The notes beneath the pieces were generated by a model. It ran no database searches. It was not told the DNA's origin and saw only the letters and a program-made list of their open reading frames with translations. Of a stretch of 64,000 nt of DNA, positions 1,756-60,047 are shown piece by piece (within the stretch, counting starts at the first letter, position 1; each line of letters begins with the position of its first letter). The translations under genes and the position numbers were made by a program. Source of the DNA: a virus; the IMG/VR virus record IMGVR_UViG_3300031772_000023, positions 3,985-67,984 of that record; one strand, written 5' to 3'.

Positions 1756-1775
1756 ACAATTAAAATAAATACACA

Positions 1776-2751: not shown

Positions 2752-2785
2752 GTTATATCTTTGTCTTAATTAAATTTAATTGATA

Positions 2786-2959
2786 ATGATTCCTTCCGAA
2801 AAACGTATTCCAAATAGTATTAATTATATAGGAGAAGGTGGATATAATTCATCAGGTCATATTTTTTGGGTAAGAGTAACATTAGGCATAAAACATGGAT
2901 GGATATGGTATTGGAATACCGAAGAGCAACAAGTTTTTGAAAAATATTTTAAAATATGA
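2786..2959 (+). CDS. Small hypothetical protein (57 aa, not in ORF track)
   Basis: MIPSEKRIPNS...; follows -7 box at 2756; ATGA overlap with next gene. Confidence 0.5.
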   Translation: MIPSEKRIPNSINYIGEGGYNSSGHIFWVRVTLGIKHGWIWYWNTEEQQVFEKYFKI

Positions 2960-43826: not shown

Positions 43827-44666
43827 TTAAAAGTTTATATTGTTTATTGGAGACTGTATTTTTGAAATTAAGTTGTGTGAGATATGAGTATAGATTTCAG
43901 TCGTTCTTACGTCTGAATGACCAGCTAGTCTTTTTATAAGTAAAATATCTGTACCCATTTCTACCATGTGTGTGAAAGTGCAATGACGGATAAGGTGTGT
44001 ATAAACTCTTTTAGAAAGTCCTGCCGATTTAGCGAGTTGTTTTATTACCTCGCCAACTGATCTTGCCGAATATTGCAAATCATTTTGTCCATTAAAAACA
44101 TAAATAACGGATTTGTATTCTCTGTAATATTTTTCGAGCAATGGGATAACGTTAGGATTCAATCCTACCTGCCTGTCCTTTTTACCCTTTGCTTGAATAA
44201 TATTTATTATCATCCTACTTCTATCAATATGTGACCATTTTAAATTTATTATCTCAGATACACGAAGGCCGCATGAATATAGTAAAGCAAAAATAGTTTT
44301 GTGTTTCAGATTCTCACATACATTAAACATTCTCTGTATTTCCTCTTGAGATAAAACTATTGGCAGCTTTTTAGATTTCCTCGGACGCTCTATATATTTG
44401 AATTTCTCAATTCCAACATGAGCGACCTTTTCATAATAAATCTTTATTGCCGAATGATAACCGGAATGGGTTGATGGTTCTTGAAATTGACCAAGGAATT
44501 GAATTATCATTTCGTGATTAATTCTATCGGGATGAGTAACTTCTTTCCTTTCAAAGTGCGCAAGGAATCCAGTAAAGTTACTACAATAATTACTTACTGA
44601 TCTAGGAGAGTATTTTCTAAACTCCATATACTTTCTGAGTTGATTGGTATGCTCTGAAATATTCAT
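43827..44666 (-). CDS. Tyrosine recombinase, integron-integrase-like but without the IntI-specific insertion
   Basis: SAM-like N-terminus (YSPRSVSNY), KKLPIVLSQEE, catalytic GLRVSE / AKGKKDR / HLIRH / AGH / IYTH. Confidence 0.92.
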   Translation of the reverse strand: MNISEHTNQLRKYMEFRKYSPRSVSNYCSNFTGFLAHFERKEVTHPDRINHEMIIQFLGQFQEPSTHSGYHSAIKIYYEKVAHVGIEKFKYIERPRKSKKLPIVLSQEEIQRMFNVCENLKHKTIFALLYSCGLRVSEIINLKWSHIDRSRMIINIIQAKGKKDRQVGLNPNVIPLLEKYYREYKSVIYVFNGQNDLQYSARSVGEVIKQLAKSAGLSKRVYTHLIRHCTFTHMVEMGTDILLIKRLAGHSDVRTTEIYTHISHNLISKIQSPINNINF

Positions 44667-44697: not shown

Positions 44698-44721
44698 TAA
44701 TATGTAATACATATACATGTT
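44698..44721 (+). repeat. attI-like primary site
   Basis: TAATATGTAATACATATACATGTT, 31 bp upstream of the recombinase start; ends in the first GTT of the array; no hairpin. Confidence 0.8.
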
Positions 44722-44733
44722 CTACGCAATTGT

Positions 44734-45070: not shown

Positions 45071-45151
45071 AACAAGCGGGTTTAATTCCATTGTCAAAAT
45101 CATTTCATCGTTGCGGGATATTTTGCCAACGAAATAAACCCGCAGGACGTT
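45071..45151 (+). repeat. attC-like hairpin 1
   Basis: AAC-aa-gcgggttta...taaacccgc-aggac-GTT. Confidence 0.8.
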
Positions 45152-45616: not shown

Positions 45617-45678
45617 AACAAGGGATTAAAAGAAATTGGCTGAAAAAAGAAGCCAACTTCTTTAATCCCCGATGCGTT
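45617..45678 (+). repeat. attC-like hairpin 2
   Basis: AAC-aa-gggattaaa...ttggct / agccaa...tttaatccc-cgatgc-GTT. Confidence 0.85.
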
Positions 45679-46397: not shown

Positions 46398-46504
46398 AAC
46401 ATAGGGTTTGCACTAATTTTCCTTCAACTTTTTTATTCTGTTTCATTTGTTTCAGTCAAACCGTTTGAGGCAAACGCCCTTCGGGTAGTCAAACCCTTGA
46501 ACTT
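46398..46504 (+). repeat. attC-like hairpin 3 (core CTT)
   Basis: AAC-at-agggtttg...caaaccct-tgaa-CTT. Confidence 0.7.
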
Positions 46505-46778
46505 AAATGCAATAGCTACGACCCCGCTCCGTAAGTTCAACTTTGCCATTTTTGCGTTCAACCAATTTATAATCCTCAAGTTTGTATATTGTTGCCCAAC
46601 TAATGTTTTTCATAGCATTATTTGAGTAAAAACATATTGCGTTAATGCCAGATAGATAGTATATAATCTCGTTAGCTTGTAAAGTTGATATTACTTCCTT
46701 TTGAGCTTTAGATAATTTAACCGCTACTGCATTTAACACGGGTTTGGCAAAAAAGCCGTTTTGGTCTTCGTTTGACAT
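46503..46778 (-). CDS. Cassette 4 winged-helix-like protein; starts inside hairpin loop
   Basis: LSKAQKEVI...LVE...ELTERG. Confidence 0.65.
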   Translation of the reverse strand: MSNEDQNGFFAKPVLNAVAVKLSKAQKEVISTLQANEIIYYLSGINAICFYSNNAMKNISWATIYKLEDYKLVERKNGKVELTERGRSYCI

Positions 46779-46852
46779 ATTGTTCTAATTTTTAAGTTTT
46801 GTAATTCTATTTGACTTTTCGTTTCGGCTTCTTCGCCAAGCCCGCAACCGTT
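46735..46852 (+). repeat. attC-like hairpin 4
   Basis: AAC-a-cgggtttggc...gccaagcccg-caacc-GTT. Confidence 0.85.
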
Positions 46853-46980
46853 GCACCGCAAGGCGGTGCAACTAAGTCCGCGTACCGCGTGCCGCCCTGC
46901 GGGCAACATCCCGTTTGATGCCAGCGCCGGGCATTGATGTGAAGCCACATCTGCCCGCGCCCGCACAAACGCGGACAGTT
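46850..46980. mobile_element. Cassette 5, gene-less GC-rich mini-cassette
   Basis: GTTGCACCGC-AAG-GCGGTGCAAC directly followed by hairpin gtccgcgt...acgcggac-a-GTT. Confidence 0.7.
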
Positions 46981-46999
46981 GGGCGCAATTTGTATTTGT

Positions 47000-47206
47000 T
47001 CAAAGGGGGCTAACAGCCAACGACACCTCATGGTCTATATAGTTATACATTTTCATTTTAAATTTCTCTTTCCCTCCCAATAATTTTATACTGCTTTTTT
47101 TAACCCACAAAAAAGATAATGGAATTGCTTTGTCCTTTATCGGCTTTCTTCCTGCACCTTTTCGTGCGCCCCCTCGTTTTGATTTTTTCATGTTCTCTGT
47201 CCGCAT
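47000..47206 (-). CDS. Cassette 6 small basic protein (GGARKGAGRKP motif)
   Basis: Same motif type as 60576..60767. Confidence 0.6.
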   Translation of the reverse strand: MRTENMKKSKRGGARKGAGRKPIKDKAIPLSFLWVKKSSIKLLGGKEKFKMKMYNYIDHEVSLAVSPL

Positions 47207-47264
47207 TGAAGCGCACGGCTGAACCGCAGAGAAACCGTCCTACTGACTTAGCAGAACAGCAGGA

Positions 47265-47693
47265 TTACGCTTCAACTGAATTATTCTTTTTCAGTAATTC
47301 TACAAGCTCCTCCATTGAATTTTTAAGCCGACTAATTTCATCTTTCAAATCGTCAATGATTGGCTCTTTATAAACATGGTATTTATTATAATTTGACCAG
47401 CCGATTGAATAAAGAAGTGACTGAATTTTGTAGGTGCTTCCCATGATTTTGCATTTATCTACATGAGAATAGTCGAGTTTATTCGGGTCTCTTTCTTCTT
47501 CTGGAGTACCATACTGATAATCCTTACCAAATTCAATCTGTTCAATAATAATATCATCCAAATCATCATTGGTTTCAATTATAAAAGAGGAATTATAATC
47601 CTCAATAAATAATGATTCACCTGTTTCAGTGATGACTCTGAATCCACATTCGTGTGGATGTTTTTTCCATGAAATAATCTTTTTTGTTTTCAT
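47265..47693 (-). CDS. Cassette 6 hypothetical protein
   Basis: Likely start MKTKKII, downstream of near-consensus -7 box at 47733-47740. Confidence 0.65.
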   Translation of the reverse strand: MKTKKIISWKKHPHECGFRVITETGESLFIEDYNSSFIIETNDDLDDIIIEQIEFGKDYQYGTPEEERDPNKLDYSHVDKCKIMGSTYKIQSLLYSIGWSNYNKYHVYKEPIIDDLKDEISRLKNSMEELVELLKKNNSVEA

Positions 47694-47855
47694 TGTGCTA
47701 AGTTTTAATTGTTGATGTTTTGATTTGTAACGTAAAGATAAGTATTTAATTTGAATTGGCAATAGGTTTAATCAAATATATTTTCAATACAAGAATAGTG
47801 CCAAAACAGCCGCCCCCTTTGAACAAATACAAACTGCAAGGGCTAAAGCCCGCCC

Positions 47856-47965
47856 AACATAGGATTTGCAGTAATTGGTCATTTCCTTTTTTATTTTTTT
47901 CATATTGATAAATGCCCAACCAAAACGAGGCGTTTTGCCCTTCGGGTACTCAAACCCTCACCATT
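47856..47965 (+). repeat. attC-like hairpin 6 (core ATT)
   Basis: AAC-at-aggatttg...caaaccct-cacc-ATT; related to hairpin 3. Confidence 0.7.
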
Positions 47966-48317
47966 ATCCGCAAGCGTTCAAAGGGGCAACAGCCTCCCAG
48001 CCAATCCCATTCGCCATTTCTTCTTTCAACATTTTCTGTAATGCAGGTAATATTTTCTCCGCAAATCTGTTACAAGCTGTTTCGCATTTTTTGCCATACA
48101 AAATGTAAGCCATTCCTGTGTACATTTTAGTTCCGAAGTAACCAATATTTAAACCGATTAGAAAATCTCGGAAATCTTTATCTCCGTAACTTCTCCAAGC
48201 AAAGGAAAGGTTTCCCCAATCCGTAACCGATGCGAACATTCCATCTGATGTTAGAACTATTTGTCCTAACCATTCTCCATTGTCGCCTTTCAGCGAGTAA
48301 CTTTTTGATTGTACCAT
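47964..48317 (-). CDS. Cassette 7 hypothetical protein
   Basis: Stop codon overlaps the junction core. Confidence 0.7.
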   Translation of the reverse strand: MVQSKSYSLKGDNGEWLGQIVLTSDGMFASVTDWGNLSFAWRSYGDKDFRDFLIGLNIGYFGTKMYTGMAYILYGKKCETACNRFAEKILPALQKMLKEEMANGIGWEAVAPLNACG

Positions 48318-48383
48318 TTTGTTTTTATGTTTTAGTTATTGTTTCAAGTTTCTTACAGCCGCCCCTTTGAACGCCAGACGGAT

Positions 48384-48462
48384 AACATCGGATATAGTCA
48401 AGTAAAATTTCCTTCTCATAGTTGCTATTGATAAATTTTCCCTGCCCATATCCGTCAGCGTT
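48384..48462 (+). repeat. attC-like hairpin 7
   Basis: AAC-at-cggatat...atatccg-tcagc-GTT. Confidence 0.75.
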
Positions 48463-48533
48463 AGCAGACATTGTAATTATTAAAAAAACAAAAGCCACCG
48501 CACTCTTTAAATTTTTCAAATTTATAAAATGTT

Positions 48534-49079
48534 TTATTTCGTAATCGTTTCAAACACTATCTTCTTTGGTAAAATATCCTTCGTAACATACACACTTGAA
48601 AACGGAGGGTTCAAACTCGGTTTTTGGTCTGCATAGCTTTTAAAGTAGCTTATCCGTTTATTAAAATACATTATTTCAAATTCGTTATCCTTAAACATAT
48701 TAAATCGTTTTTGGCTTTCAAACAATCCAACTACTCCAACAAGCATCGCAAATGGTTTTCCAAGTTCAAATAGTTTTTGGAATACTTCTGCTTTAATTGA
48801 GTAGGGCGGATTTGAAATAATGTAATCAAAGTTCACAAGAAATTCAGTTGTAAAAAAATCTCTACCATCTGAAATATGTGAGCAAATAGCATCGTGTCCT
48901 TGTTCTCTAAGCATTTTTACAAAGTTACTTTCTTCCGTATCAAACGGACACCACACAATACTTTTTGGCTTCAAGTATTTCATAAGCGGTTCTATTGCAT
49001 ATCTTGGTGTATAAAATTCATCATTCGGATTTATTTCTCCGTTCATTTCTGCTTTGTTTGTAATCTCGTCCAGTTTCAT
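48534..49079 (-). CDS. Cassette 8 small adenine methyltransferase-like protein
   Basis: DEFYTP, VWCPFD, DFF, IISNPPYS. Confidence 0.75.
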   Translation of the reverse strand: MKLDEITNKAEMNGEINPNDEFYTPRYAIEPLMKYLKPKSIVWCPFDTEESNFVKMLREQGHDAICSHISDGRDFFTTEFLVNFDYIISNPPYSIKAEVFQKLFELGKPFAMLVGVVGLFESQKRFNMFKDNEFEIMYFNKRISYFKSYADQKPSLNPPFSSVYVTKDILPKKIVFETITK

Positions 49080-49176
49080 ATTTCTTAGTTTAAATTAAGA
49101 GCCGACACACACCTTCCCTTTTTGTTTTTTTAATAATTACAACGAGCCTACGCTCAAAATCCCACCGCACTCTGCT

Positions 49177-49235
49177 AACACTGGGTTTAACGTCAGTTTG
49201 CGAAAAGCAAACCGAACGTAAACCCAGATACCGTT
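49177..49235 (+). repeat. attC-like hairpin 8
   Basis: AAC-a-ctgggttta...taaacccag-atacc-GTT. Confidence 0.85.
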
Positions 49236-49458
49236 ATGCGTAATTATTCAGCAACGCCACTACCTTAACCGCCATTTCTCTATCACCCCAAAAGCCCTCA
49301 CACACTCTACGGTCACACCATAAATCTAAATGTGTTCGTGGCTTATCGTGTTCACCAATTTCATAGTATCTAACCTTCCCTCTAACCACTTCTCTGAACA
49401 CATAACTGCGCATAACAGGAAGATTAGAAGAAATTTCTTTTTTGTTTTCAGTTTCCAT
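49234..49458 (-). CDS. Cassette 9 hypothetical protein; starts inside hairpin loop
   Basis: ISSNLPVMRS is encoded by the hairpin arm. Confidence 0.65.
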   Translation of the reverse strand: METENKKEISSNLPVMRSYVFREVVRGKVRYYEIGEHDKPRTHLDLWCDRRVCEGFWGDREMAVKVVALLNNYA

Positions 49459-49546
49459 ATTGAGTTTTGTTTTTAATTATTAGCATTTCGTTTTCAATCA
49501 AAGTTTGCGGAGACAAAAAAGAAACTTCTCTAATCTCCGATGCGTT
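49414..49546 (+). repeat. attC-like hairpin 9
   Basis: AAC-a-ggaagattagaagaaatttc...gaaacttctctaatctcc-gatgc-GTT. Confidence 0.85.
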
Positions 49547-49575
49547 ACCCAAAATAAAAGTGGGCAATTAGCATC

Positions 49576-49725
49576 CTACTTTGAAAATGCTTTTATATAT
49601 TGTTTAATCGTTGCCTTTTTAAATCCTCGTCTCATTAATTGGCTAACGATTACACCATTTGTTTTTCCGTCTCCGAGCAAGTATCTTACTTGCCATTGGA
49701 GGTCTCGCTTTTCTTCGTTTGTCAT
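49576..49725 (-). CDS. Cassette 10 small protein (49 aa, not in ORF track)
   Basis: MTNEEKRDLQWQVRYLLGDGKTNGVIVSQLMRRGFKKATIKQYIKAFSK. Confidence 0.6.
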   Translation of the reverse strand: MTNEEKRDLQWQVRYLLGDGKTNGVIVSQLMRRGFKKATIKQYIKAFSK

Positions 49726-49775
49726 AATATTTATTTTAAAAGTTAATTTTCGTTTTGCCCACTTTTACTTCGGGT

Positions 49776-49868
49776 AACATAGTTTTGTGTGCCAGTTGGC
49801 TTCACCATTTTATTTTCTTCAATTTGTTTCATCCAACCGTTCCCTTCGGGCAACAAAACTTGTCCGTT
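49776..49868 (+). repeat. attC-like hairpin 10
   Basis: AAC-at-agttttgt...acaaaact-tgtcc-GTT. Confidence 0.75.
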
Positions 49869-49886
49869 ATCGGTCAGCACTACATT

Positions 49887-50138
49887 TCATTGAAAAGATA
49901 ATGATTCTAACTCCCACTTAGCGGACTTATGCGAAAAAACTAATGCTGTACCCCATCCTGCATGTGGGACTAAAACATCATAACTAATATACTTCCAATT
50001 TTCAAAGTATGTTTGTAAAAACACTACATACCCATCAATTTCTATTGGTATCCAAGCAAACTTCTTTGCTTTACATACTTGTCCAATAAAATAATTTTCT
50101 TTAACAAGTATCTTTTTTTCTCTTTTTTTAAACTTCAT
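49887..50138 (-). CDS. Cassette 11 hypothetical protein
   Basis: KFAWIPI..G..VFLQ.Y. Confidence 0.65.
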   Translation of the reverse strand: MKFKKREKKILVKENYFIGQVCKAKKFAWIPIEIDGYVVFLQTYFENWKYISYDVLVPHAGWGTALVFSHKSAKWELESLSFQ

Positions 50139-50199
50139 AAAACATTAATTTTTGACGTTAGCAATAACTCCTCTATAATTTTACCCGTGCCGAACCGAT

Positions 50200-50326
50200 A
50201 ACAAGGGGTTTTGTGCTATTGCGGCTTGACGTTCTTAATTTCAACATTTGTTTTTCAATCGGGCTGCATCTGTGGTTTGAACTGCGGTAATTCTATTTCC
50301 GCAACAGACACAAAGCCCTGTTCGTT
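50200..50326 (+). repeat. attC-like hairpin 11
   Basis: AAC..gggttttgtgctattgcgg...ccgcaacagacacaaagccc..GTT. Confidence 0.85.
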
Positions 50327-50350
50327 ATAAAACATTGCCATTCCAGTTCA

Positions 50351-50521
50351 TCAATGAAAGTGGGTGCATCTATAACATTCAACATTTCTATTTTCACATT
50401 CCCTATGCCAAAAGGAATGGCAACGCTTTATAACAGGAAGATTTGAAGAAATTTTATTTACTTCCTTATCTGCTTTTTTAGGCGTTTTTGCTTTAACTTT
50501 CTTTACTGCTTTTTTCATCAT
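50351..50521 (-). CDS. Cassette 12 small Cys/His protein (56 aa, not in ORF track); starts inside hairpin loop
   Basis: MMKKAVKK...ISSNLPVIKRCHSFWHRECENRNVECYRCTHFH. Confidence 0.55.
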   Translation of the reverse strand: MMKKAVKKVKAKTPKKADKEVNKISSNLPVIKRCHSFWHRECENRNVECYRCTHFH

Positions 50522-50569
50522 TTGTGCTTTTAAGTCGTAAATAAAACATTCTCAAATCTCCGATGCGTT
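50432..50569 (+). repeat. attC-like hairpin 12
   Basis: Same arm family as hairpin 9. Confidence 0.85.
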
Positions 50570-50580
50570 AGTGGCAAGTG

Positions 50581-50766
50581 CTACATTTCGTCTTCGTAAA
50601 AACATTTGCCTTTAGTGCTAAAATATTCTTTTGCCCACTCTTTACCTTTCCCGTTCAATAATGCTTCTACAAAATCAGCTATGATATTTGCACCGTCACA
50701 ATGTCCATCTGGACCATCGTTAATCATTATGTCGCTAATAATATTTTCAATTTGTTCTTTGTTCAT
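50581..50766 (-). CDS. Cassette 13 hypothetical protein
   Basis: DGPDGHCDG motif; fills the cassette. Confidence 0.65.
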   Translation of the reverse strand: MNKEQIENIISDIMINDGPDGHCDGANIIADFVEALLNGKGKEWAKEYFSTKGKCFYEDEM

Positions 50767-50795
50767 TTTTCGTTTAATTTACCGCACCAGCCACT

Positions 50796-50890
50796 AACAG
50801 TGGTTTTGTGCTATTATTTTGGCTATAAAATTTATCTTTAAAGGTAAGTGTCTGCAAGCCAAAATAACAGACACAAAGCCACGAAACGTT
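50796..50890 (+). repeat. attC-like hairpin 13
   Basis: AAC-a-gtggttttgtgctattattttggct...agccaaaataacagacacaaagccac-gaaac-GTT. Confidence 0.9.
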
Positions 50891-50901
50891 GTAGGCAATG
50901 G

Positions 50902-51168
50902 CTAAGAGTGTTCAATCATTGCCTGTGCTATAAAAATTGTTTCCTCTCCCTTATGCACAAATTGTTGATTAGGTATTACTTTCATCACATAGCCACTTGT
51001 GTATTCAAGCACCGTGTCTGTTTCACTATCATAGTCGGCAACAATTTTATCCGACCACTCAAATAGCACTTGCACAGGCAAATTAACTATTCGGATGTCG
51101 CCACTGCCTACAACATTGTGTTGCTGCAATTGTGGCAATTCCCACTTAAATTCATCTTTGTTTTTCAT
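50902..51168 (-). CDS. Cassette 14 hypothetical protein; starts inside hairpin loop
   Basis: Likely start MKNKDEF; LPQLQQHNVVGS is encoded by the arm. Confidence 0.65.
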   Translation of the reverse strand: MKNKDEFKWELPQLQQHNVVGSGDIRIVNLPVQVLFEWSDKIVADYDSETDTVLEYTSGYVMKVIPNQQFVHKGEETIFIAQAMIEHS

Positions 51169-51237
51169 ATCAAGTTTTTGTTTGTTATTCAACTTTTGTC
51201 TTTCAAATGCCACAACTGACAGCAACACCTTACCGTT
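51112..51237 (+). repeat. attC-like hairpin 14
   Basis: AAC..gtgttgctgcaattgtggca...tgccacaactgacagcaacac..GTT. Confidence 0.85.
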
Positions 51238-51260
51238 ATACGCAAGGCTACCATTCATTT

Positions 51261-51752
51261 TCATATTGAGCATTTCGGTAAGGTTTTAAAGATTGTATCA
51301 CCCTCCCATCCACGCTTCATTTCTAAAATACAGGTTTGAACTCTGCTTCCTTTGAAAGTGCTTCGTGGCAAATGTGTAATTGATTTTAGCCCCCATTCCA
51401 TAATATCCTTTGTCCTTTTCTCTCCGTTTATAATTGCCAAATAAGGCATCAGAGCAATTATATTATCCGTCATATCCATACACTTGTAAAGGATATCATA
51501 CCCTTGCTTCATTGGGCTAAATGGTGGGTTCATCACTATCCATTCAAATTGGCTTTCCACCATTTTATTAAAATCATTTGGCACAATCACTTTTCCGTAT
51601 TGCTCTAATGCCTTTACAAGTTTTCCTTTGCCAGCAGTGGGCTCTAAAATCAAACCTGTATTTCCAATAAGAAATGAAGCCATATACTCACACACATTTT
51701 CGGGTGTTTGAAAATTATCGCCCCAATCTTTAAAATCTTTTTCTTCTTCCAT
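51261..51752 (-). CDS. Cassette 15 small adenine methyltransferase-like protein
   Basis: FQTP, ILEPTAGKG, IVMNPPF. Confidence 0.8.
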   Translation of the reverse strand: MEEEKDFKDWGDNFQTPENVCEYMASFLIGNTGLILEPTAGKGKLVKALEQYGKVIVPNDFNKMVESQFEWIVMNPPFSPMKQGYDILYKCMDMTDNIIALMPYLAIINGEKRTKDIMEWGLKSITHLPRSTFKGSRVQTCILEMKRGWEGDTIFKTLPKCSI

Positions 51753-51787
51753 ATCAATATTTTCTCTTAATTAACCGCCCAGCGTAT

Positions 51788-51876
51788 AACACGGTATTTG
51801 TGCTATTTTGCCATTGGGCTTTATCTATAATTTGAACATTTGTGCAAGGCAAAACAGACACAAATACCCATCCGTT
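51788..51876 (+). repeat. attC-like hairpin 15
   Basis: AAC-ac-ggtatttgtgctattttgcc...ggcaaaacagacacaaatacc-catcc-GTT. Confidence 0.9.
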
Positions 51877-51905
51877 AGTTACCTGCAAGTGCTACGATAC
51901 TGCTA

Positions 51906-52631
51906 CTATTGAACATTTGTGGGAGAAAATTTAAAAAGTTTTTCCACGCTCTTAAAATTATTCTGTTTACTTAACGTGTTACTTAATTCCATCTCCCAAA
52001 CACATTCAAAGTCAATAGGTGCGTTATATTCACTCACAAATACTGTGCGTCCTTCTTTTGATTTATCCCTACACCATTCCCAAAATTCAATATGGTCTAT
52101 TCCGTTTTTGTATTTTATAGTCCCTTCGTATGGTGGGTCGCAATAAATGATTGAGTTTGGTGGTATTTCTAAATTCTTATAATCAGATTGAACAAAATGA
52201 ACTGATATTAAATTAGGTATTTGCTTTATCAAACCACGTCTTGCTTCATCTTGATGATTAGGTAATTTTCCGTTTTTTAATCTTTTTGATTCTTGATAGT
52301 CACTCAAATAACCACCAAACCATTTCCCTCCATAGCTACAACATATTCCTGCCCATACAGTCATTTTACTATCTCTATCTTGGTTTTGTTTAATATATTC
52401 ATATTCATCCCTACTTATTCTTAATGGTGGTGTCCATCCATCTTGCAATGCTTTATAAAATTCAATTAAATGTTTGTTATAATCAGAAGCAAGTCTTAAA
52501 CCTTCAACTTTATCGGTGATGTTTGCTCCACCAACAAAAGGCTCAACAAACCATTGATTAGGTTTTCTATCATTTAGTATTATTGGTAAAATGTGTTTTG
52601 CAATTCTACTTTTATTTCCTGTATATCTCAT
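51906..52631 (-). CDS. Cassette 16 Dam/D12-class DNA adenine methyltransferase
   Basis: YTGNKS, FVEPFVGG, IYCDPPY, VFVSEY. Confidence 0.9.
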   Translation of the reverse strand: MRYTGNKSRIAKHILPIILNDRKPNQWFVEPFVGGANITDKVEGLRLASDYNKHLIEFYKALQDGWTPPLRISRDEYEYIKQNQDRDSKMTVWAGICCSYGGKWFGGYLSDYQESKRLKNGKLPNHQDEARRGLIKQIPNLISVHFVQSDYKNLEIPPNSIIYCDPPYEGTIKYKNGIDHIEFWEWCRDKSKEGRTVFVSEYNAPIDFECVWEMELSNTLSKQNNFKSVEKLFKFSPTNVQ

Positions 52632-52702
52632 ACTCTAAAACTTTTTTAATTTTCTATTCGTTTTCAAATCAAAATCCTGCTAAATTAACCGCACCAGCAG
52701 GT

Positions 52703-52766
52703 AACAGCACCCTTAACGCAAGTGGGCTGAAAAAAGAAGCCCACCAGCGTAAGGCTGCAATCCGTT
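52703..52766 (+). repeat. attC-like hairpin 16
   Basis: AAC-a-gcacccttaacgc..gtgggct / agcccac..gcgtaaggctgc-aatcc-GTT. Confidence 0.8.
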
Positions 52767-53028
52767 ATAGGAAATTTATGGATTTTAGGTATTTCTCAAC
52801 ACCTTCCTTTATTCCTAAACTTTGGTTGTGTATTCCTTCACATTCCATTGATTGACAAAAATCCATAAACATTCCTATAACATCGGGTTTATGAAATTTT
52901 TTAACCTCACTTTCTGCAAACTCCGAGAGTAGGTCTTCTAATCTAAAGTAGTTTTCAGGTGCGGTTTCATCAGCAACATTTGCACCTACATAAATCTTTT
53001 TGCTTCTTAAAAATTCTCTTGTATTCAT
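52765..53028 (-). CDS. Cassette 17 hypothetical protein; about half encoded inside the hairpin
   Basis: VKKFHKPDVIG is encoded by the arm. Confidence 0.65.
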   Translation of the reverse strand: MNTREFLRSKKIYVGANVADETAPENYFRLEDLLSEFAESEVKKFHKPDVIGMFMDFCQSMECEGIHNQSLGIKEGVEKYLKSINFL

Positions 53029-53077
53029 TTTGTTATATTTAAACGGTTAAAAAACTATCATAAACCCGAATCACGTT
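52879..53077 (+). repeat. attC-like hairpin 17 (longest, 199 bp)
   Basis: AAC-a-tcgggtttatga..ttttttaacc...ggttaaaaaa..tcataaacccga-atcac-GTT. Confidence 0.85.
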
Positions 53078-53085
53078 ATGCGTAA

Positions 53086-53376
53086 TTAAAAGAACTCGTT
53101 AATCATAGCATCTACTGTTGGCTTTAAGAACCTGAAATACTCTCTTTTGTGTTCAGCAATATCTTCTTCATTTATCCCAAACCAAAAGATAATTGGCAAA
53201 GGAATTTCAAACTCTTTTGATATTGTTTCTAATACGCTAATGTTTGGAGTTTTTGCTCCAGTTTCAATTTGTGATAAGTATGTTTGAGTTATACCTATCA
53301 ATTTTGCAAACTCCGACTGATTTAATTGCGGTGTTCGCTCTTTTCTAATGTTTCTAATTGCTATTCCTACATTCAT
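53086..53376 (-). CDS. Cassette 18 XRE-family HTH regulator with its own promoter
   Basis: NQSEFAKLIGITQTYLSQIETG; TACCTTTG -7 box at 53398-53405. Confidence 0.85.
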   Translation of the reverse strand: MNVGIAIRNIRKERTPQLNQSEFAKLIGITQTYLSQIETGAKTPNISVLETISKEFEIPLPIIFWFGINEEDIAEHKREYFRFLKPTVDAMINEFF

Positions 53377-53478
53377 AATTTTATGTTATTTATTAAGCAA
53401 AGGTAATAATTATTTCTGACAAAACAAATTTATCTTAAAAATATTAACTACGCATAATAGCAGAAATAAAAAATTTGC

Positions 53479-53861
53479 TCATAGCGTTCTGTGCTTCGGT
53501 TCAACATACGCCACGCCAATCCTATCAAACAGGTCTTTTTCCTCACGCACTTCATAGCTTTTGCCATTCTGCATAAGGTAGCCACCTTCGCTTTTTGCCA
53601 TTGGTTCACTATCTCCGCTATGCCATCCTGAAAAAGACCAGCTTGATAGGGCTTTGGAATTGCTACTATCTCAATGTCCTTTACTTCGCTTTTCTCCCTG
53701 CGTATGCTTCCTGCAATCTCACATCTTATGCAATGTGGTTGTAGCAATTCCAACACACGCACCGCTATCGAATGGGCTTCATCGTAAGCAAATTTTTTAC
53801 TATCCGCTAACACACCATTGGAAGTAATGGCGGTCTTTTCGGTATCATTTTGCTTTTTCAT
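53479..53861 (-). pseudogene. Cassette 19 family X DNA polymerase-like gene with internal deletion and frameshift
   Basis: IAGSIRR..VKDIEIV in one frame; EEKDLFDRIGVAYVEPKHR-stop in another frame; middle missing. Confidence 0.75.
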
Positions 53862-53928
53862 ATTATTTATCTTTTAGTTGTTAATCAAAATTATCTTTTC
53901 TATTCCGCCACTACTCCAATGGTCGGTT
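53809..53928 (+). repeat. attC-like hairpin 19
   Basis: AAC..accattggaagtaatggcgg...ccgccactactccaatggt..GTT. Confidence 0.85.
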
Positions 53929-54154
53929 AGCCGCCATTTAAAAGACGCTTTATCGTTCTATAATCTTCAACCTCTTTATGTAATGCTTTTAATCCTTCAA
54001 TTTGCATTTCTAAGTCTTGTTTTACCACTTCGTTTGTTTGTCTAACCAGTTCTTTTTGTAAGTCTGCTGCAATCCGTAACAATAAACGGCTGCTAACAAC
54101 ACCTAAACAAGATGGCTGGTTTTCGTTTTCTAATGAAGTTTTGTCTGTATTCAT
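53927..54154 (-). CDS. Cassette 20 coiled-coil protein; starts inside hairpin loop
   Basis: QPSCLGVVSSR is encoded by the arm. Confidence 0.65.
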   Translation of the reverse strand: MNTDKTSLENENQPSCLGVVSSRLLLRIAADLQKELVRQTNEVVKQDLEMQIEGLKALHKEVEDYRTIKRLLNGG

Positions 54155-54217
54155 AATTTTGTGATTTTAATTAAGTTTTGTGGTGGAATACGCCACCTCG
54201 TTTAGCTGCAAAATGTT
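54095..54217 (+). repeat. attC-like hairpin 20
   Basis: AAC..ctaaacaagatggc...gccacctcgtttag..GTT. Confidence 0.75.
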
Positions 54218-54227
54218 AGCACCAATA

Positions 54228-54413
54228 CTACTTTAGTGCTTCGTCCAATCTTCCGAGAACAACTAACAATGTTTTGCGTTTAATATCGCATTTCATTGCA
54301 GCTTCAAAATCCTCTGCTTTTTTATAGTCTTCAATGTGGTTGTATAGTTGCTCTATTCGATTAACCATATCCATTCTCATTCTTTCAATGTTTTCTCTTA
54401 ATGTTTCTTTCAT
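54228..54413 (-). CDS. Cassette 21 hypothetical protein
   Basis: Inside GTTAGCACCAATAC / GTACTGGTGCTAAC inverted ends. Confidence 0.65.
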   Translation of the reverse strand: MKETLRENIERMRMDMVNRIEQLYNHIEDYKKAEDFEAAMKCDIKRKTLLVVLGRLDEALK

Positions 54414-54451
54414 CGTTTTTAATTTTATCGTTAATAATCCGTACTGGTGCT

Positions 54452-54500
54452 AACAGCGTATAAAAGCCATTGAAAAAACGGCTCTTATACGCCAACCGTT
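54452..54500 (+). repeat. attC-like hairpin 21 (shortest, 49 bp; end of array)
   Basis: AAC-a-gcgtataaaagcc...ggctcttatacgc-caacc-GTT. Confidence 0.85.
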
Positions 54501-54542
54501 CCAGTAAATCTGTTTTTGATAGTTAACTTAGTTTTCATAGTA

Positions 54543-54743
54543 TTAATTTTTATAAAAATATTTAGTGATCTTACGCATATCTTTTGAAAAGGTTACGCTA
54601 AATCCATTTTTAATATCTAATTTCCAGTTTATGATTATTTTTATTGCCTCCTTTTGATGTTCGTTTATGTAATGCCATTCTCCCATATTCATTTTAATGA
54701 GTTCCTGAAGCAAACCGTTTTTATAATCTGAAGATATATTCAT
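54543..54743 (-). CDS. Hypothetical protein after dnaB
   Basis: ATGA overlap with the dnaB stop. Confidence 0.55.
   Translation of the reverse strand: MNISSDYKNGLLQELIKMNMGEWHYINEHQKEAIKIIINWKLDIKNGFSVTFSKDMRKITKYFYKN
54572..54596 (-). promoter_or_regulatory. ECF-sigma-like promoter motif, copy 4, facing the cassette array
   Basis: Minus strand GTAACCTTTTCAAAAGATATGCGTA. Confidence 0.55.
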
Positions 54744-56140
54744 TTATAATGGTTTTCTGTTATGTTCCTATCGTAAAATATTGTCATAGATTTATTGCAA
54801 CCATAAAAAACACTTCCAGTATCACCATTTCGATGTTTCTCTATTATCAATTCCCCTTCACCTACAAGTGATCTTCCATCTTCGCTAGTAATTCCGTCTT
54901 TATGAGGATAATAAATAAAAATTACAATATCGGCATCTTGCTCGATCGCGCCTGATTCTCGAAGATCAGAAAGTTTTGGCCTCATACTTCCCCCCCTCTT
55001 TTCTACATCTCGCGAAAACTGAGATAGTGCAATTATGCAAACATTAAATTCTTTTGCAATTGATTTTAAGTTTTTGGAAATATACGCTACTTCGTTTTCT
55101 CTATTATTAATAGTCTTTTCGTTAGGAACAGTCATTAATTGCAAATAATCAACGCCAACTAAAACAACTTTATGATCTCTAACTAATCTTTTAATGCGCT
55201 TTCTCAATTCAAATATTGAAAGAGATGGAGTATCATCAAGGTATATTGGCAATTTAGCTAATTCTATTTCCTTGGATTTTAAGTGTTCTAGTTGATAATG
55301 CTGCAGGTCTCCATCACGATAATTATAAGAATTTACAGCTGTTTCTCCCAATATGGCCCTATCTGTAATGTTAATATTTTCCATTTCTAAAGAAAATAAA
55401 GCGGACGGCTTACCTAACCTAGCAGCACTTTTAATAAAATGTATAACCAGCGCAGACTTACCTCTTCCGGGTCGAGCTGCTAATATTACCAATGTTTTCT
55501 TCTTCCACCCACCAGTAAATTTATCCAAATCTGTTAGTCCAGTTGGAATCCCAATCACTCTACCATGTTTAAATGCCTCTATTCGCTCAGAAAGGGCTAT
55601 TGCGGAGGCGTTCAGCGATTCAGCAAATGTTTGTATTGTTTTTGCTGTAGAGTTGTCTATTTCGCTTAAAAAGCGGCTGGAACTATTAATCAATTCAAAT
55701 ACATCGGTAGTATCGTCATAAGCCTTTTGTACAGTTTCGGTTGCAATTCTTATTATTTCTCGTTTGTAGTACTTTTCTAAAATGATTCTGCAATGCACTT
55801 GAATATTAGATGCTGAAGCTATGTTATTAGTTAGTTTTGTGACATAATGCGCTCCTCCAGCTATATCTAAAGTTCCCAATTTTAGTAATTCTTGCGTTGT
55901 AGTTAAAATGTCAATAGAATCACCCCTATTTTTTTGCTTCAAACTAAATATTGCCTTGCAGATTTCCTGATGCGCTTCTTTGTAGAAAGCATCTGGTTTT
56001 ATTATCTCCAGTGCATTTTCCAAACCTTCTTTGTCCAACATCATTGCTCCAAGAACTGCTTCTTCAATATCTAAAGCCTGTGGAGGAATTTTACCAAGTT
56101 CAATAAGTTGCTGAGGTGTTATATTTTGTTTGTATTTCAT
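54740..56140 (-). CDS. dnaB: Replicative DNA helicase
   Basis: PPQALDIEEAVLG, AARPGRGKS, FSLEM, VDYLQL, LSDLRESGAIEQDAD, KHRNG. Confidence 0.97.
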   Translation of the reverse strand: MKYKQNITPQQLIELGKIPPQALDIEEAVLGAMMLDKEGLENALEIIKPDAFYKEAHQEICKAIFSLKQKNRGDSIDILTTTQELLKLGTLDIAGGAHYVTKLTNNIASASNIQVHCRIILEKYYKREIIRIATETVQKAYDDTTDVFELINSSSRFLSEIDNSTAKTIQTFAESLNASAIALSERIEAFKHGRVIGIPTGLTDLDKFTGGWKKKTLVILAARPGRGKSALVIHFIKSAARLGKPSALFSLEMENINITDRAILGETAVNSYNYRDGDLQHYQLEHLKSKEIELAKLPIYLDDTPSLSIFELRKRIKRLVRDHKVVLVGVDYLQLMTVPNEKTINNRENEVAYISKNLKSIAKEFNVCIIALSQFSRDVEKRGGSMRPKLSDLRESGAIEQDADIVIFIYYPHKDGITSEDGRSLVGEGELIIEKHRNGDTGSVFYGCNKSMTIFYDRNITENHYK

Positions 56141-56299
56141 TTAAAAAGGGGTTTTATTTGTTTCTGAAATTGACCTATTAGCCGATTCTTCATTTTTAAG
56201 TACTTGATATAAAGCGTTACATATTTGAGAATTATATGATACTCCATATCTTTTCTTTTCTTCCATCCATTTACTGAAATCAGAATGTATTCTAATGTT
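56141..56299 (-). pseudogene. Ribbon-helix-helix-like small gene whose 5' end is interrupted by a cassette
   Basis: NIRIHSDFSKWMEEKKRYGVSYNSQICNAL; stop abuts the dnaB ATG. Confidence 0.4.
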
Positions 56300-56762
56300 A
56301 GCGGTAATACTGCGACATCGCTTCGTAGAAAGTTTTTGCCATATTTTCAAATTCTGCCAAATCAATGTTTTTGCTTACACACATATCAATTCTATCTTCA
56401 CCTAAAACCATACACTCATACATTATTCCTATTCTGTTTGCGTATGGGTCACGGTCTGCGTACTTTCTAAAATCATAAAACAATATGCCTATTTGATAAA
56501 TTTTATCTTCACCATTTTTTAAAGTTTTCCAATAACAGAAATCCTCGTTTTTATGATTTTGAACGTATCTTCTATATCCTATTTCTTTTAGTTTAGTTTC
56601 CGTTTCAGATAACCATTCATCCCAAGAAGTACTACCGCTAACATCCGCTATAAGTAATGGCGGTTGAAGTGGTAAATCAATGTTTGTGCTTTTTATTGTC
56701 ATTTGTACTGAATTTAAAGTGAGTAGTTCTAAATCCGCCACTACTCATAGCGGAGTACCGTT
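56297..56762. mobile_element. Satellite cassette upstream of dnaB
   Basis: GTTAGCGGTAATAC / GTACTACCGCTAAC ends; hairpin 56640-56762. Confidence 0.85.
56298..56702 (-). CDS. Cassette gene, hypothetical protein; starts inside hairpin loop
   Basis: Likely start MTIKSTN; PPLLIADVSGS is encoded by the arm. Confidence 0.65.
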   Translation of the reverse strand: MTIKSTNIDLPLQPPLLIADVSGSTSWDEWLSETETKLKEIGYRRYVQNHKNEDFCYWKTLKNGEDKIYQIGILFYDFRKYADRDPYANRIGIMYECMVLGEDRIDMCVSKNIDLAEFENMAKTFYEAMSQYYR

Positions 56763-57628: not shown

Positions 57629-57981
57629 TATATTTTTTATTTAAAAAATAATTATCAACATCTTTTCTTTCGATGTGCTTACAAACAAGGTCTATAATTT
57701 TCTGGGTTCTTCCAACAGCGTTCTTCGTGATTAATCATTGCGTGATTTCTTTTCAATTCCTTTTTTCAGAAATCACACTTATAAATAGTTATATTATATA
57801 GTACTTTCATATATAAAGTGCCTCTTCGGGTCGGGGCGGCTTGCGGTTAGCGGCTTAAGCAACTGAGAGCGCATCCCCTTCCCTAAAGGACTTTTATCTT
57901 AAATATTTTTTTGTTGAATCATTTGCTTAAGCCTTAATTAATGGACAAATATACTAATTACTTTAACACTACAACTTTATT

Positions 57982-59558: not shown

Positions 59559-59649
59559 AGTTAAAGATTTATATTGGTTATATTCCTGTTAAATATTTGT
59601 TACATGAACAGGAATATTAACATTAACTCGCATATTTACAACTACTTAC

Positions 59650-59673
59650 TAATATGTAATACATATACATGTT
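59650..59673 (+). repeat. attI-like site, full 24-bp copy
   Basis: Identical to 44698-44721. Confidence 0.8.
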
Positions 59674-59681
59674 AGCCACAA

Positions 59682-59903
59682 TTATAGTGGAAGATACACA
59701 CCATTTTTTACATTAAAATCGAAATCGTGTTTATCTATACTCAAATAAAATTCCTTTTTACCGCTAATCTTATTAGCTTTCTTTTTACACCACAACACAA
59801 TAATAAAATCATCAACAACACCTCTGACTTCACACGAATCTATGTTGTTAATGTTGTTTTCATTGAAATACTTTTTGAATTTTAATCCTACTTTTAATTC
59901 CAT
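59682..59903 (-). CDS. Cassette gene, hypothetical protein
   Basis: Fills the cassette. Confidence 0.65.
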   Translation of the reverse strand: MELKVGLKFKKYFNENNINNIDSCEVRGVVDDFIIVLWCKKKANKISGKKEFYLSIDKHDFDFNVKNGVYLPL

Positions 59904-60047
59904 TTTATTTTCGTTTTAAATTGTTAATAATCAAATAACTGTGGCTAACAGCGTATATAAGAAATGGCACATAAACATTCGTGCTTAATTTTAACATTCT
60001 ACAAGTGCCACTTCTCATATACGCAAAACGTTAAACGCAAATAAAAA

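Follow-up and report, generated by a model that had tools for sequence, protein, structure and literature searches.

The question raised by this locus is whether a recombination site can at the same time be part of the genes that it mobilizes. The 64,000-nt stretch analysed here, which we call the window, comes from the 68-kb record of an uncultivated phage, probably of Bacteroidota. The record bears an integron-like array of about 22 swappable gene cassettes on the minus strand, and this platform sits in the early and replication region of the phage. The array genes include DNA methyltransferases and an HTH regulator. A preliminary description of the window proposed that the hairpins between these genes are recombination sites which also supply translation starts and stops. 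We think it likely that this is an integron-like phage cassette platform whose hairpins are recombination sites and, in about a third of the cassettes, also the translation start and first codons. The recombination site itself would then be part of protein-coding sequence in a third of the cassettes.

Read on the coding (minus) strand, each cassette body lies between an R' box (GTT-N5-xAGT) and an R'' box (ATT-x-N5-AAC), and the two boxes of a body are mutually complementary over at least 14 nt. Complementary ends (score >10 over at least 14 nt) are found in 18 of the 22 bodies. Of the remaining four, three show a fusion, an offset from a second AAC, or an insert that breaks the body up. Between the AAC of one body and the GTT of the next is an imperfect hairpin. 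It opens with 5 unpaired nt; the stem, often with a bulged base, is 10-25 bp long, the loop is variable, and 1-2 unpaired nt ending in T follow. We curated 22 such sites of the form R''(..TAAC)-5 nt-stem-loop-stem-T-R'(GTTA..), 20 from our own heuristic scan, which requires an AAC core, at a looser threshold and two with variant cores (hairpins 17 and 20) placed by eye. On the minus strand of the 15.5-kb array, the stricter scan finds 18 non-overlapping AAC-stem-GTT hairpins; each of five shuffles gives 0-1, and the other 40 kb have 1-2 per strand. When folded as DNA, 15 of these 18 have z <= -3.0; the remaining three (z -0.72, -0.88 and -1.87), two of which have a start in the loop, are no better than shuffles. 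Across a wider set of 80 non-identical hairpins from 17 sources, AAC is preceded by T in 67 and followed by G in 72, and GTT is preceded by T in 76 and followed by A in 70. Five unpaired nt follow AAC in 50 of them, and 1-2 nt precede GTT in 66. The features are these, in the direction of transcription:

59947..60032, minus: hairpin 1 (AAC..GTT), 86 nt, z -4.0; ORF start after GTT
59650..59683, minus: attI-like site, second copy (88% identity), preceded by a single cassette
56640..56762, minus: hairpin 2, 123 nt, z -6.2; ATG 56702 in loop
56298..56702, minus: ORF, 134 aa; leader ..LLIADV from loop, arm and core; ends at the TAA in GCTAAC
54452..54500, minus: hairpin 3, 49 nt, z -4.3; recombinase-distal end of the main array
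54095..54217, minus: hairpin 4, 123 nt, z -3.1; ATG 54154 in loop
53927..54154, minus: ORF, 75 aa; leader ..SCLGVV; ends at the TAA in GCTAAC
53809..53928, minus: hairpin 5, 120 nt, z -7.0; ATG 53861 in loop
53448..53861, minus: ORF, 137 aa, PolB-thumb (PF14791)-like family; leader ..TSNGV, then LADSKKF; C-terminus truncated, running into the degenerate R' (ATT) of the HTH cassette
52879..53077, minus: hairpin 6, 199 nt; ATG 53028 and 49 codons in loop
52765..53028, minus: ORF, 87 aa; leader ..FHKPDV; stop is the TAA of CTATAAC
52703..52766, minus: hairpin 7, 64 nt, z -5.4
51876..52705, minus: cassette body with a D12-class DNA methyltransferase gene (51906-52631)
51788..51876, minus: hairpin 8, 89 nt, z -3.2
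51112..51237, minus: hairpin 9, 126 nt, z -3.8; ATG 51168 in loop
50902..51168, minus: ORF, 88 aa; leader ..LQQHNV
50796..50890, minus: hairpin 10, 95 nt, z -4.9
50432..50569, minus: hairpin 11, 138 nt, weak fold, z -0.72; ATG 50521 in loop
50351..50521, minus: ORF, 56 aa; Lys-rich leader ..SSNLPV, then a Cys/His-rich tail; body of 111 nt only
50200..50326, minus: hairpin 12, 127 nt, branched loop without a start, z -1.9
49776..49868, minus: hairpin 13, 93 nt, z -3.0
49414..49546, minus: hairpin 14, 133 nt, z -3.1; ATG 49458 in loop
49234..49458, minus: ORF, 74 aa; leader ..SSNLPV, then M; stop is the TAA of GCATAAC
49177..49235, minus: hairpin 15, 59 nt, z -5.3
48384..48462, minus: hairpin 16, 79 nt, z -3.8
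47856..47965, minus: hairpin 17, 110 nt, core AAT not AAC, overlapped by the TAA stop of ORF 47964-48317
46905..46980, minus: hairpin 18, 76 nt, rich in G+C; the 58-nt body behind it has no ORF
46735..46852, minus: hairpin 19, 118 nt, weak fold, z -0.88; ATG 46778 in loop
46503..46778, minus: ORF, 91 aa; leader ..FAKPV, then LNA, GTT in phase 2; stop is the TAA of TTTAAG
46398..46504, minus: hairpin 20, 107 nt, core AAG not AAC
45617..45678, minus: hairpin 21, 62 nt, z -7.0
45071..45151, minus: hairpin 22, 81 nt, z -3.4
44698..44731, minus: last R'' box (AAC 44721-44719), then the attI-like site; 34-nt repeat, about 50 nt upstream of the recombinase start
43827..44666, minus: tyrosine recombinase, 279 aa, Xer/IntI-like (Pfam Phage_integrase, 3.2e-35)

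The recombinase gene closes the array at its 3' end and points the same way as the cassette genes. Against NCBIfam its product scores 177 bits with XerA and 162.7 bits, in two stretches, with the integron integrase TIGR02249, both under the cut-offs. Its best PDB match is VchIntIA (2a3v), again in two stretches, with query residues 180-205 opposite 180-248 of the chain. Fifteen of the 16 loci listed (window included) and 7 of 8 MAG loci have an AAC with an A/T-rich ..TATATGT.. motif after it, and in those loci the recombinase gene always lies directly behind the array and a conserved attI-like site. Counted over the viral loci on the strand of the recombinase gene, the 126 kb of upstream sequence hold 48 hairpins against 2 in the 164 kb of downstream sequence; one or more upstream hairpins occur in 16 of 21 viral loci. 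Polaribacter phage Freya has the same layout as the window.

The proposal that the hairpins are recombination sites is supported by cassette differences between near-identical phages, which stop exactly at the cores. Lillamy9-1 and 9-3 are otherwise 99.9-100% identical, and between them a 439-nt hairpin-plus-gene unit has moved to the attI-like end. Freya_10 differs from Freya_9 by the gain or loss of a 304-nt hairpin-plus-ORF unit, the ORF of which starts in the loop. Both cassettes lie at the junction of array and attI-like site. A metagenome contig of run X2 is without hairpin 4 and its body, joining 53926 to 54215 through AAC, and Hemulen/lillamy indels break at AAC as well. Since the crossover between close variants is at AAC, the cassette is the hairpin plus its downstream body, and the start codon travels with its own gene instead of being offered by a resident site. 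Deeper comparisons of conserved bodies have breaks at both the GTT and AAC flanks, so hairpin modules and bodies also reassort. The 118-nt body from GTT 52881 to AAC 52766 recurs in another locus, L028, behind a different hairpin, and a 635-kb phage record has the methyltransferase block 51876..52705, GTT through AAC, at 90% identity with other hairpins at either side.

The coding overlap is found in 8 of the 22 cassettes: an A-rich leader and an ATG lie in the loop, from which the ORF continues through the 3' arm and GTT. All eight starts listed in the preliminary description (46778, 49458, 50521, 51168, 53028, 53861, 54154 and 56702, minus strand) do lie between the stem arms, each of the ORFs runs across the 3' arm and the GTT core, and the eight peptides it gave are present in frame at the arm and core. 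With loop, arm and core read as codons, the same DNA would therefore be both recombination structure and N-terminal coding sequence. The peptides had been called related, but they are alike only via the conserved T-GTT-A, save for two SSNLPV peptides that derive from one hairpin family. The shared peptide is only a by-product of T-GTT-A, which reads as Val with GTT in frame and as V/M-L with GTT in phase 2; the peptide is too degenerate for the protein marker that had been suggested. The six stops (46503, 47964, 49234, 52765, 53927 and 56298) are as described: the TAA shares its AA with the left core, which is TAAC in four, TAAT in one and TAAG in one. Six in 22 is about what the TAAC consensus gives in one frame of three; these stops end 5 of the 8 loop-start ORFs versus 1 of the 14 others (Fisher p = 0.011). 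GenBank annotation of hemulen6-1 has 8 of 16 array CDS beginning within a hairpin, including four methyltransferases.

The further claim was that the site supplies start and stop and that captured DNA might in this way become a gene at once. This reading is supported in part. The 3' arm and core are probably coding, several bodies (the PolB-thumb-like and 134-aa families among them) have no usable start of their own, and in four protein families the hairpin-encoded leader differs among homologues and meets, at the GTT codon, a body without a start. However, the three differences between close variants are of hairpin plus downstream gene with the junction at AAC, and 13 of the 22 cassettes have their own ATG 32-165 nt past GTT. 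The leader family ..NG.FAKPV precedes two unrelated bodies. Alignment of the PolB-thumb-like body begins a few residues before the Met of chromosomal homologues. Leaders of the 134-aa family vary among homologues, and leaders in general are poorly conserved; the leader peptide is weakly constrained. The N-termini compared here are gene-caller predictions, which may favour the longest ORF, and the underlying DNA was examined for L028 only.

It could be argued that translation begins at or just after the core, and that the loop ATGs are idle and the leaders are untranslated loop into which gene callers extended. In phase-2 cassettes the start would then be an NTG that shares the G of GTT, and at 49458 it would be the ATG after GTT. 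Three of the eight loop-start ORFs do have such alternatives, a GTG across the core at 46778 and 53861 and an in-frame ATG (residue 16) right after GTT at 49458. Because 76 of the 80 sites have T ahead of GTT, the site itself provides an NTG codon, the codon at the core is ATG in some homologues (..AKPML, ..SNGML), the homologue P0136 has no leader, and poor leader conservation points the same way. Even so, we consider this decidedly unlikely. GTT, the core codon of the six phase-0 ORFs, is no start codon, and except for 49458 their next in-frame starts are far downstream, at residue 74 (56702), 25 (54154), 53 (53028) and 30 (51168), with none for 50521. The 134-aa family is conserved from W27, and its next in-frame ATG is at residue 94. 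Upstream of GTT 15-57 codons are open, only in cassettes without a downstream ATG. A caveat is that two frames are open beyond the loop start, that of 51168 to ATG 51273 and that of 56702 to GTG 56741. In the wider set, among frames open for at least 30 codons downstream of GTT, an ATG comes ahead of any stop on the way upstream from GTT in 28 of 46 cases (0.61), against a mean of 0.21 and a maximum of 0.36 with shuffled interiors (n=200). The 25 nt before the loop ATGs contain 18-22 A+T.

The recombination itself can be read in other ways. The hairpin arms belong to a few sequence families repeated within and between phages, and homologous recombination has been proposed for the promoter-stem-loop repeats of T4-type phages, so the mosaics might come from homologous recombination between hairpin families without any site-specific event. 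The chimera P0002, broken inside the loop-encoded part and not at the core, would fit this. We find it very improbable: junctions fall on 3-5 nt cores also when the hairpins beside them are unrelated, the attI-like target of the lillamy move shares only ATAAC with the donor, and the box ends are body-specific and mutually complementary. That the hairpins are instead RNA-level signals, whether terminators, processing stems or translation-control stems, seems to us extremely improbable. They are intergenic on the coding strand and would fold in mRNA too with the start codon in the loop, but they end in GTTA with no T-run after it, no Rfam family matches them, the breakpoints lie at their cores, and they are linked to the recombinase and attI-like site. 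They may act in RNA besides recombination. More plausible, but still unlikely in our opinion, is that the acting enzyme is a host Xer, an integron integrase or that of a co-infecting element, the arrays being CALIN-type clusters and the 279-aa enzyme serving lysogeny. The window's recombinase could be a lysogeny integrase, and the authors of the Freya phages took the integrase there to indicate a temperate lifestyle (PMC8776804). A six-frame search finds PF00589 in none of three Lillamyvirus records though the same hairpins and cassette movement are present, and P12002L has the same hairpins with no integrase annotated among 82 CDS; the enzyme may therefore come from elsewhere. Of two P12002L attC sites assayed, IntI1 recombined one (the bottom strand of attC2), and it also recombined four sites from two other phages (Qi et al. 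2023, PMC9892861). Against this stand the recombinase gene directly behind array and attI-like site in nearly all loci, the 48 to 2 distribution of hairpins on its strand, and the position of the Freya and lillamy cassettes at the junction of array and attI-like site.

An integron-like platform of this kind would work as follows. By analogy with integron attC sites, the hairpin would fold on single-stranded DNA, and a recombinase, presumably the 279-aa enzyme, would exchange strands at the core. The hairpin plus downstream body would be the unit that moves, as in the one move that landed at the attI-like site, and over deeper divergence breaks at GTT would let hairpin modules and bodies reassort. 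The loop of roughly one cassette in three would have turned into a translation initiation region, with its A-rich leader and ATG. From there the ribosome would pass the 3' arm, T and GTT, read as Val or, in phase 2, as V/M-Leu, and go on through the body, often as far as the TAA that the next TAAC contains.

Phage attC clusters are already published; the 279-aa recombinase, the array layout and the coding overlap were not found in our literature search. The sites in the window differ from attC in having spacers of 5 nt, where those of integron attC are 1-2 nt, and R boxes of 12-15 bp. Unlike attC cassettes, the ORFs of this array point towards the recombinase, and that recombinase is without the IntI-specific insert that IntI has.

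Eight genes of this phage start in the loops of hairpins and six stop at a TAA overlapping the left core, all located where the preliminary description placed them, and the eight peptides it listed are present in the frames it gave. The confirmed observation leads to something larger: Bacteroidota phages with a cassette platform that resembles an integron without being of the IntI kind, and whose recombination hairpins regularly form part of genes.

The record is 67,984 bp long with a completeness rated at 91%, and the window covers its bases 3985-67984. Structural genes occupy the plus strand from 1 to 40 kb. An early and replication block lies on the minus strand from 40 to 62 kb; besides a tyrosine recombinase and several DNA methyltransferases it encodes DnaB, a replication initiator and a DnaA-like HTH protein. 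Segments of this block match phages of the Flavobacterium-infecting genus Lillamyvirus at 88-95% identity, and another segment matches a 635-kb uncultured phage at 90%. The small cassette ORFs are mostly without a match in Pfam and NCBIfam, and an Rfam search over 40-64 kb returned no credible family. A 353-nt intergenic region at 57640-57980 has a core that is G+C-rich and apparently structured (..GGGAAGGGGATGCGC..CCGACCCGAAGAGGC..) and matches nothing in Rfam. Within the DUF6291 gene, at 57303-57370, an 18-nt direct repeat, TTTGCTTCGTCTTGCTTC, occurs four times (D4).

The intergenic regions of the minus strand are built alike. An R'' box closes with (T)AAC and is followed by some 5 unpaired nt; next come an arm, a loop and the complementary arm; then 1-2 unpaired nt ending in T lead into an R' box beginning GTT(A). 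We located these sites with a purpose-written AAC-stem-GTT scan at a looser and a stricter threshold. The looser one gives 34 minus-strand matches from 60.5 to 43.5 kb, and the 20 that chain with one another were kept. The stricter one gives 18 non-overlapping sites on the minus strand of the 15.5-kb array and 8 on its plus strand (the sites are near-palindromic); the controls gave 1-2 per strand over the other 40 kb and 0-1 in each of five shuffles. Two additional sites, with AAT and AAG in place of AAC, were spotted by eye and their positions then fixed. This makes 22 sites in total, 20 in a single run from 54,500 to 45,071 and lone cassettes at 56.7 and 60.0 kb. On DNA folding, 15 of 18 sites have a z of -3.0 or lower (the exceptions are -0.72, -0.88 and -1.87), and the predicted stem is present in the minimum-energy or centroid structure of all 18. 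The consensus was drawn from 80 non-identical hairpins.

Conserved features of the pooled hairpins, taken from 16 loci besides the window (hairpins with the feature)
T before AAC: 67/80
G after AAC: 72/80
5 unpaired nt after AAC: 50/80
1-2 unpaired nt before GTT: 66/80
T before GTT: 76/80
A after GTT: 70/80
A at -9 from AAC: 57/80
T at -8 from AAC: 71/80

A bulged base is found in the 5' arm at 35/80 sites and in the 3' arm at 20/80, the spacers are 5 nt versus 1-2 nt, and the boxes are complementary over 14-15 nt or more. The ends of the cassette bodies, which run from GTT to the next AAC, are mutually complementary in 18 of 22 (score >10, at least 14 nt), typically as GTT-N5-xAGT against ATT-x-N5-AAC with a recurrent T.G position, and in some bodies the paired ends (inverted repeats I2-I5, I7 and I10) reach 25-35 nt. 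Four bodies have weaker end complementarity: a fused PolB-thumb/HTH cassette, the D12 methyltransferase body, which a second AAC puts out of register, and two with an insert interrupting an arm. In the flanking boxes the ATT of the AAC side recurrently stands opposite the AGT of the GTT side, so that the coding strand has a T.G pair where its complement has an A.C mismatch; this asymmetry may mark the choice of strand. Our initial model, a gene within one giant hairpin, has been superseded by the description of alternating boxes and hairpins. The idea that longer genes have longer flanking arms is also rejected; end complementarity correlates negatively with body length (Spearman -0.53) because small, fully palindromic bodies drive the correlation.

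How far do the hairpins belong to the genes? In 8 of the 22 cassettes the frame is open upstream of GTT, for 15-57 codons in the seven measured, and a loop ATG lies 13-49 codons before GTT, which is in frame in six of these ORFs and in phase 2 in two. In 13 others a stop closes the main frame at GTT or beyond it, and 32-165 nt separate GTT from the first downstream ATG. The remaining body is a 58-nt stretch without its own ORF. Together with hairpin 18 and the beginning of hairpin 19 it lies in about 200 nt of G+C-rich sequence (46800-47000) in a genome of about 33% G+C, a region that may be a cassette remnant of a high-G+C donor. The TAA of the next TAAC is the stop for 5/8 loop-start ORFs versus 1/14 others (Fisher p = 0.011), and in those five cassettes the ORF occupies the unit from the loop through the last base. 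Of 46 relevant frames in the pooled set of 80, 28 have an ATG ahead of any stop, against a mean fraction of 0.21 and a maximum of 0.36 in 200 shuffles of the interiors. The independent annotation of hemulen6-1, a related Flavobacterium phage, places the starts of 8 of its 16 array CDS within hairpins, four methyltransferases among them.

The eight peptides had also been called related; their likeness comes from the T-GTT-A core. Read in phase 0 it is xxT GTT and so encodes P, D, N or G followed by V; read in phase 2 it is NTG TTA and so encodes V or M followed by L. A closer likeness occurs only within one hairpin family, as in the two SSNLPV peptides (direct repeat D15). Since T precedes GTT in 76/80 sites, phase-2 reading places an NTG codon across the core. 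Alternative starts at the core exist in 3 of the 8 loop-start ORFs.

The close variants tell us what moves. The Flavobacterium phages lillamy9-1 and lillamy9-3 are 99.9-100% identical across all four aligned blocks, and a 439-nt unit lies mid-array in one and at the array end site (..TTATAAC|TACAATATTACATGAT..) in the other, with junctions that share only ATAAC. Of two Polaribacter phage isolates, Freya_10 equals Freya_9 plus a 304-nt unit beside the integrase; a shared AAC forms the junction and the ORF of the unit begins in the hairpin loop. One contig of metagenome run X2 (depth 2.9) joins 53926 | AAC | 54215 and thus is without hairpin 4 and its body; the runs were taken as contigs, which have no bearing on expression or on rare excision circles, and this is the one clean joint used from an output that also has many loose ends (24 of 404 listed). 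In all three differences the junction is at AAC and the unit is a hairpin with the gene 3' of it. The indels between hemulen and lillamy break at AAC too. Among the ten Freya isolates (L038-L042 among our loci) genome length runs from 44.0 to 48.9 kb. Their integrase start ranges from 74 to 4171, which places the greater part of the variation in length in the array upstream of the integrase. At 45978-46309, 50626-50957 and 53946-54600, contigs of other sediment and freshwater metagenome runs stack on single hairpins and a methyltransferase motif, not on whole genes, so these hairpin families are common repeats in those samples.

Deeper comparisons break at GTT as well as at AAC. The HTH cassette common to the window and Lillamyvirus (94.6% identical) spans R' to R'' only. 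The metagenome locus L028 has the 118-nt body of the 87-aa ORF at about 96% identity (mismatches counted by hand), with an unrelated hairpin in front. The 635-kb phage has the D12 methyltransferase body at 90% identity, between hairpins that are unrelated on both flanks. Hairpins therefore reassort with bodies, and junctions fall at either core. A strict model with crossovers at AAC only is rejected on the GTT breaks around conserved bodies and on the leader mosaics of the 87-aa family.

There is evidence that leaders, the N-termini encoded by loop, arm and core, are exchanged with bodies in frame. It comes from four families whose homologue N-termini are gene-caller predictions, the underlying DNA having been seen for L028 only; the search of viral contigs with alignment A1 returned nothing and the metagenome scan returned that single locus. 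In the 87-aa family, P0003 shares the loop-encoded N-part and has a different C-part, and P0002 and P0004 have other N-parts on the same C-part. P0003 and P0004 break at the Val codon, P0002 within the loop part, and some of these N-parts may be diverged alleles, not unrelated modules. Members of the PolB-thumb-like family, P0030, P0066 and P0095 among others, begin M-E/K-x-x-E-A. The cassette versions have no start near this family N-terminus and carry variable leaders of 9-18 residues ending V/M/L|LADSKKF. There are at least three types of these leaders, and the ..NGNFAKPV type also fronts an unrelated 91-aa body in the window. The leaders of the 91-aa family are far more variable than the body in 9/10 members, and one member is leaderless. 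The 134-aa family has a conserved core from W27, and in P0141 another leader meets it at V|SGSTSW. The PolB-thumb-like gene of the window is shortened, 137 aa versus 162-190 in its relatives, and stops at 53448-53470 within the degenerate R' of the HTH cassette behind it, which has ATT for GTT; loss of one hairpin appears to have fused the pair.

The preliminary description proposed that the site supplies start and stop, so that captured DNA can become a gene at once. The mosaics of the four families support this mechanism in part. Against it, the hairpin travels with its own gene in every difference between close variants, and three ORFs have alternative starts.

The tyrosine recombinase is the ORF at 43827-44666 on the minus strand. 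Among NCBIfam models, XerA and the integron integrase family fit it best, neither reaching its cut-off. It scores 162.7 bits against 265 for TIGR02249, in two stretches, and 98.5 against 435 for PRK15417; on the Xer side it scores 177.3 against 220 for XerA, 152.1 against 329.6 for XerD and 151.8 against 335.2 for XerC. The closest solved structure is the Vibrio integron integrase VchIntIA, which aligns in two pieces and skips the IntI-specific region, 26 residues versus 69. The recombinase thus lacks the additional domain by which an integron integrase is recognized. An A/T-rich motif (..ATGTATATGTATTACAT..) separates the last AAC (44721-44719) from the start of the recombinase gene. This arrangement, with the motif 45-70 nt ahead of the gene, is seen in 15 of the 16 loci listed (the window included) and 7/8 MAG contigs. 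A second copy (D10) lies at 59,650-59,683, behind a lone cassette; adjoining it, at 59560-59650, is an 'empty' pair of boxes without a gene, GTTAATATTCCTGTT + 16 nt + AACAGGAATATAAC. There is thus an attI-like conserved site beside the recombinase; the lillamy cassette relocated to the equivalent site, and the additional cassette of Freya_10 is there.

This layout is not peculiar to the window. We surveyed 21 viral loci with a recombinase homologue at 24-77% identity (20 of them at 55-77%). Hairpins on the recombinase strand number 48 in 126 kb upstream versus 2 in 164 kb downstream, and 16/21 loci have at least one upstream. Freya, a cultured Polaribacter phage, shares the layout, and its recombinase is 31% identical. 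The Lillamyvirus arrays have 12-13 hairpins each (two thresholds), and a tyrosine recombinase was found in 0/3 Lillamyvirus records, with controls positive 14/14. Polaribacter phage P12002L has at least 9 hairpins of this same architecture around methyltransferase genes in our scan at the looser threshold, and its annotation of 82 CDS lists no integrase. By analogy, we infer that the recombinase would act on folded single strands of these sites.

Tentatively, and leaning somewhat against it ourselves, we put forward the reading that this is a platform of the phages' own, with an Xer-like recombinase lacking the strand-selecting IntI domain, crossovers at both AAC and GTT, and hairpin modules (initiation region, ATG and leader) that reassort in frame independently of the bodies. 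If true, this would be exon-shuffling by site-specific recombination within coding sequence. Alternatively or in addition, the platform could survive from a stage intermediate between Xer/dif systems and integrons. An IntI-like recombinase without the signature domain, together with attC-like hairpins and an attI-like site, bears on two questions, the making of cassettes and the descent of integrons from systems of Xer type, and the hairpins are a regular case of one stretch of DNA under the dual constraint of recombination hairpin and protein start. The arrays are stocked with orphan DNA methyltransferases. In passages of a study of related Flavobacterium phages, the authors tie methyltransferase gene differences to plating efficiency (PMC7077304). 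A cassette platform would explain rapid change of anti-restriction equipment in virulent phages, and so touches host range. The cultured phages Freya and lillamy open the platform to bench work.

An integron is recognized by an integrase with the additional IntI domain, attI beside the integrase, attC 3' of the ORF, ORFs reading away from intI, and a crossover at G|TT of R'. Its attC sites have 7-bp R boxes, unpaired central spacers similar on both arms, and extrahelical bases on one arm. The likenesses are these: a primary site with a tyrosine recombinase beside it, arrayed cassettes that are short, mostly hold one gene and have complementary ends, re-insertion at the primary site in lillamy, and hairpins in which structure and cores are conserved and sequence is not. 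By our scan, folding and consensus the hairpins of the window are of attC type, imperfect, with R''/L''/L'/R' boxes and AAC/GTT cores. However, the recombinase has no IntI-specific insert and is below the IntI cut-offs, the ORFs are co-oriented with its gene and read towards it, and the hairpin is 5' of the ORF. The crossover in moved units is at the coding-strand AAC (G|TT on the other strand), breaks occur on either side of the hairpin, and the loops carry start codons. The geometry too appears to depart from that of attC, with R boxes of 12-15 bp in which a T.G position is conserved and with spacers of 5 versus 1-2 nt.

Translation signals in integron sites are described in the review PMC8876359, passages of which cover ORF-11, ORF-17 and ORF-18 in attI1, short ORFs in attC, cassettes without an initiation region (~20%) and occasional fusions, such as aac(6')-Ib with the N-terminus of OXA-1. 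As far as those passages go, the likeness is that the site bears a ribosome-binding region and start codon, an ORF crosses the crossover point, and the core gives a stop codon. On the same passages, integron site ORFs are short, act by translational coupling, and fuse in frame exceptionally, whereas here read-through from loop to gene is regular, in 8/22 cassettes of the window and 8/16 of hemulen6-1.

Parts of Qi et al. 2023 (PMC9892861) describe phage attC clusters, including methyltransferase cassettes in P12002L, for which two attC sites and no recombinase are listed; IntI1 recombined 5/6 of the phage attC sites tested. The abstract, section 3.4 and searched passages of that paper mention no linked Xer-like recombinase, attI-like site, moves between isolates or ORF starts inside sites, and 'start codon' and 'Xer' occur 0 times. 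The window has no bona fide IntI and shares its hairpin architecture with P12002L, a published CALIN (a cluster of two or more attC sites with no IntI nearby), but that label disregards the related recombinase present here. In passages of PMC8776804 'hairpin' and 'cassette' occur 0 times, and neither is mentioned in the searched passages on Flavobacterium and Polaribacter phages. In the open-access papers searched, supplements aside, we found no description of recombinase-linked arrays or of ORF starts inside such sites.

Xer/dif-exploiting elements include CTX phage, which integrates through a single-stranded hairpin, and the dif modules of Acinetobacter plasmids. Like them, the present system has an Xer-type recombinase on short sites, a hairpin-folded single strand as the putative substrate, and modules bounded by alternately oriented sites. 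Unlike them, its sites are long hairpins of variable sequence, and its recombinase falls below the cut-offs of XerC, XerD and XerA.
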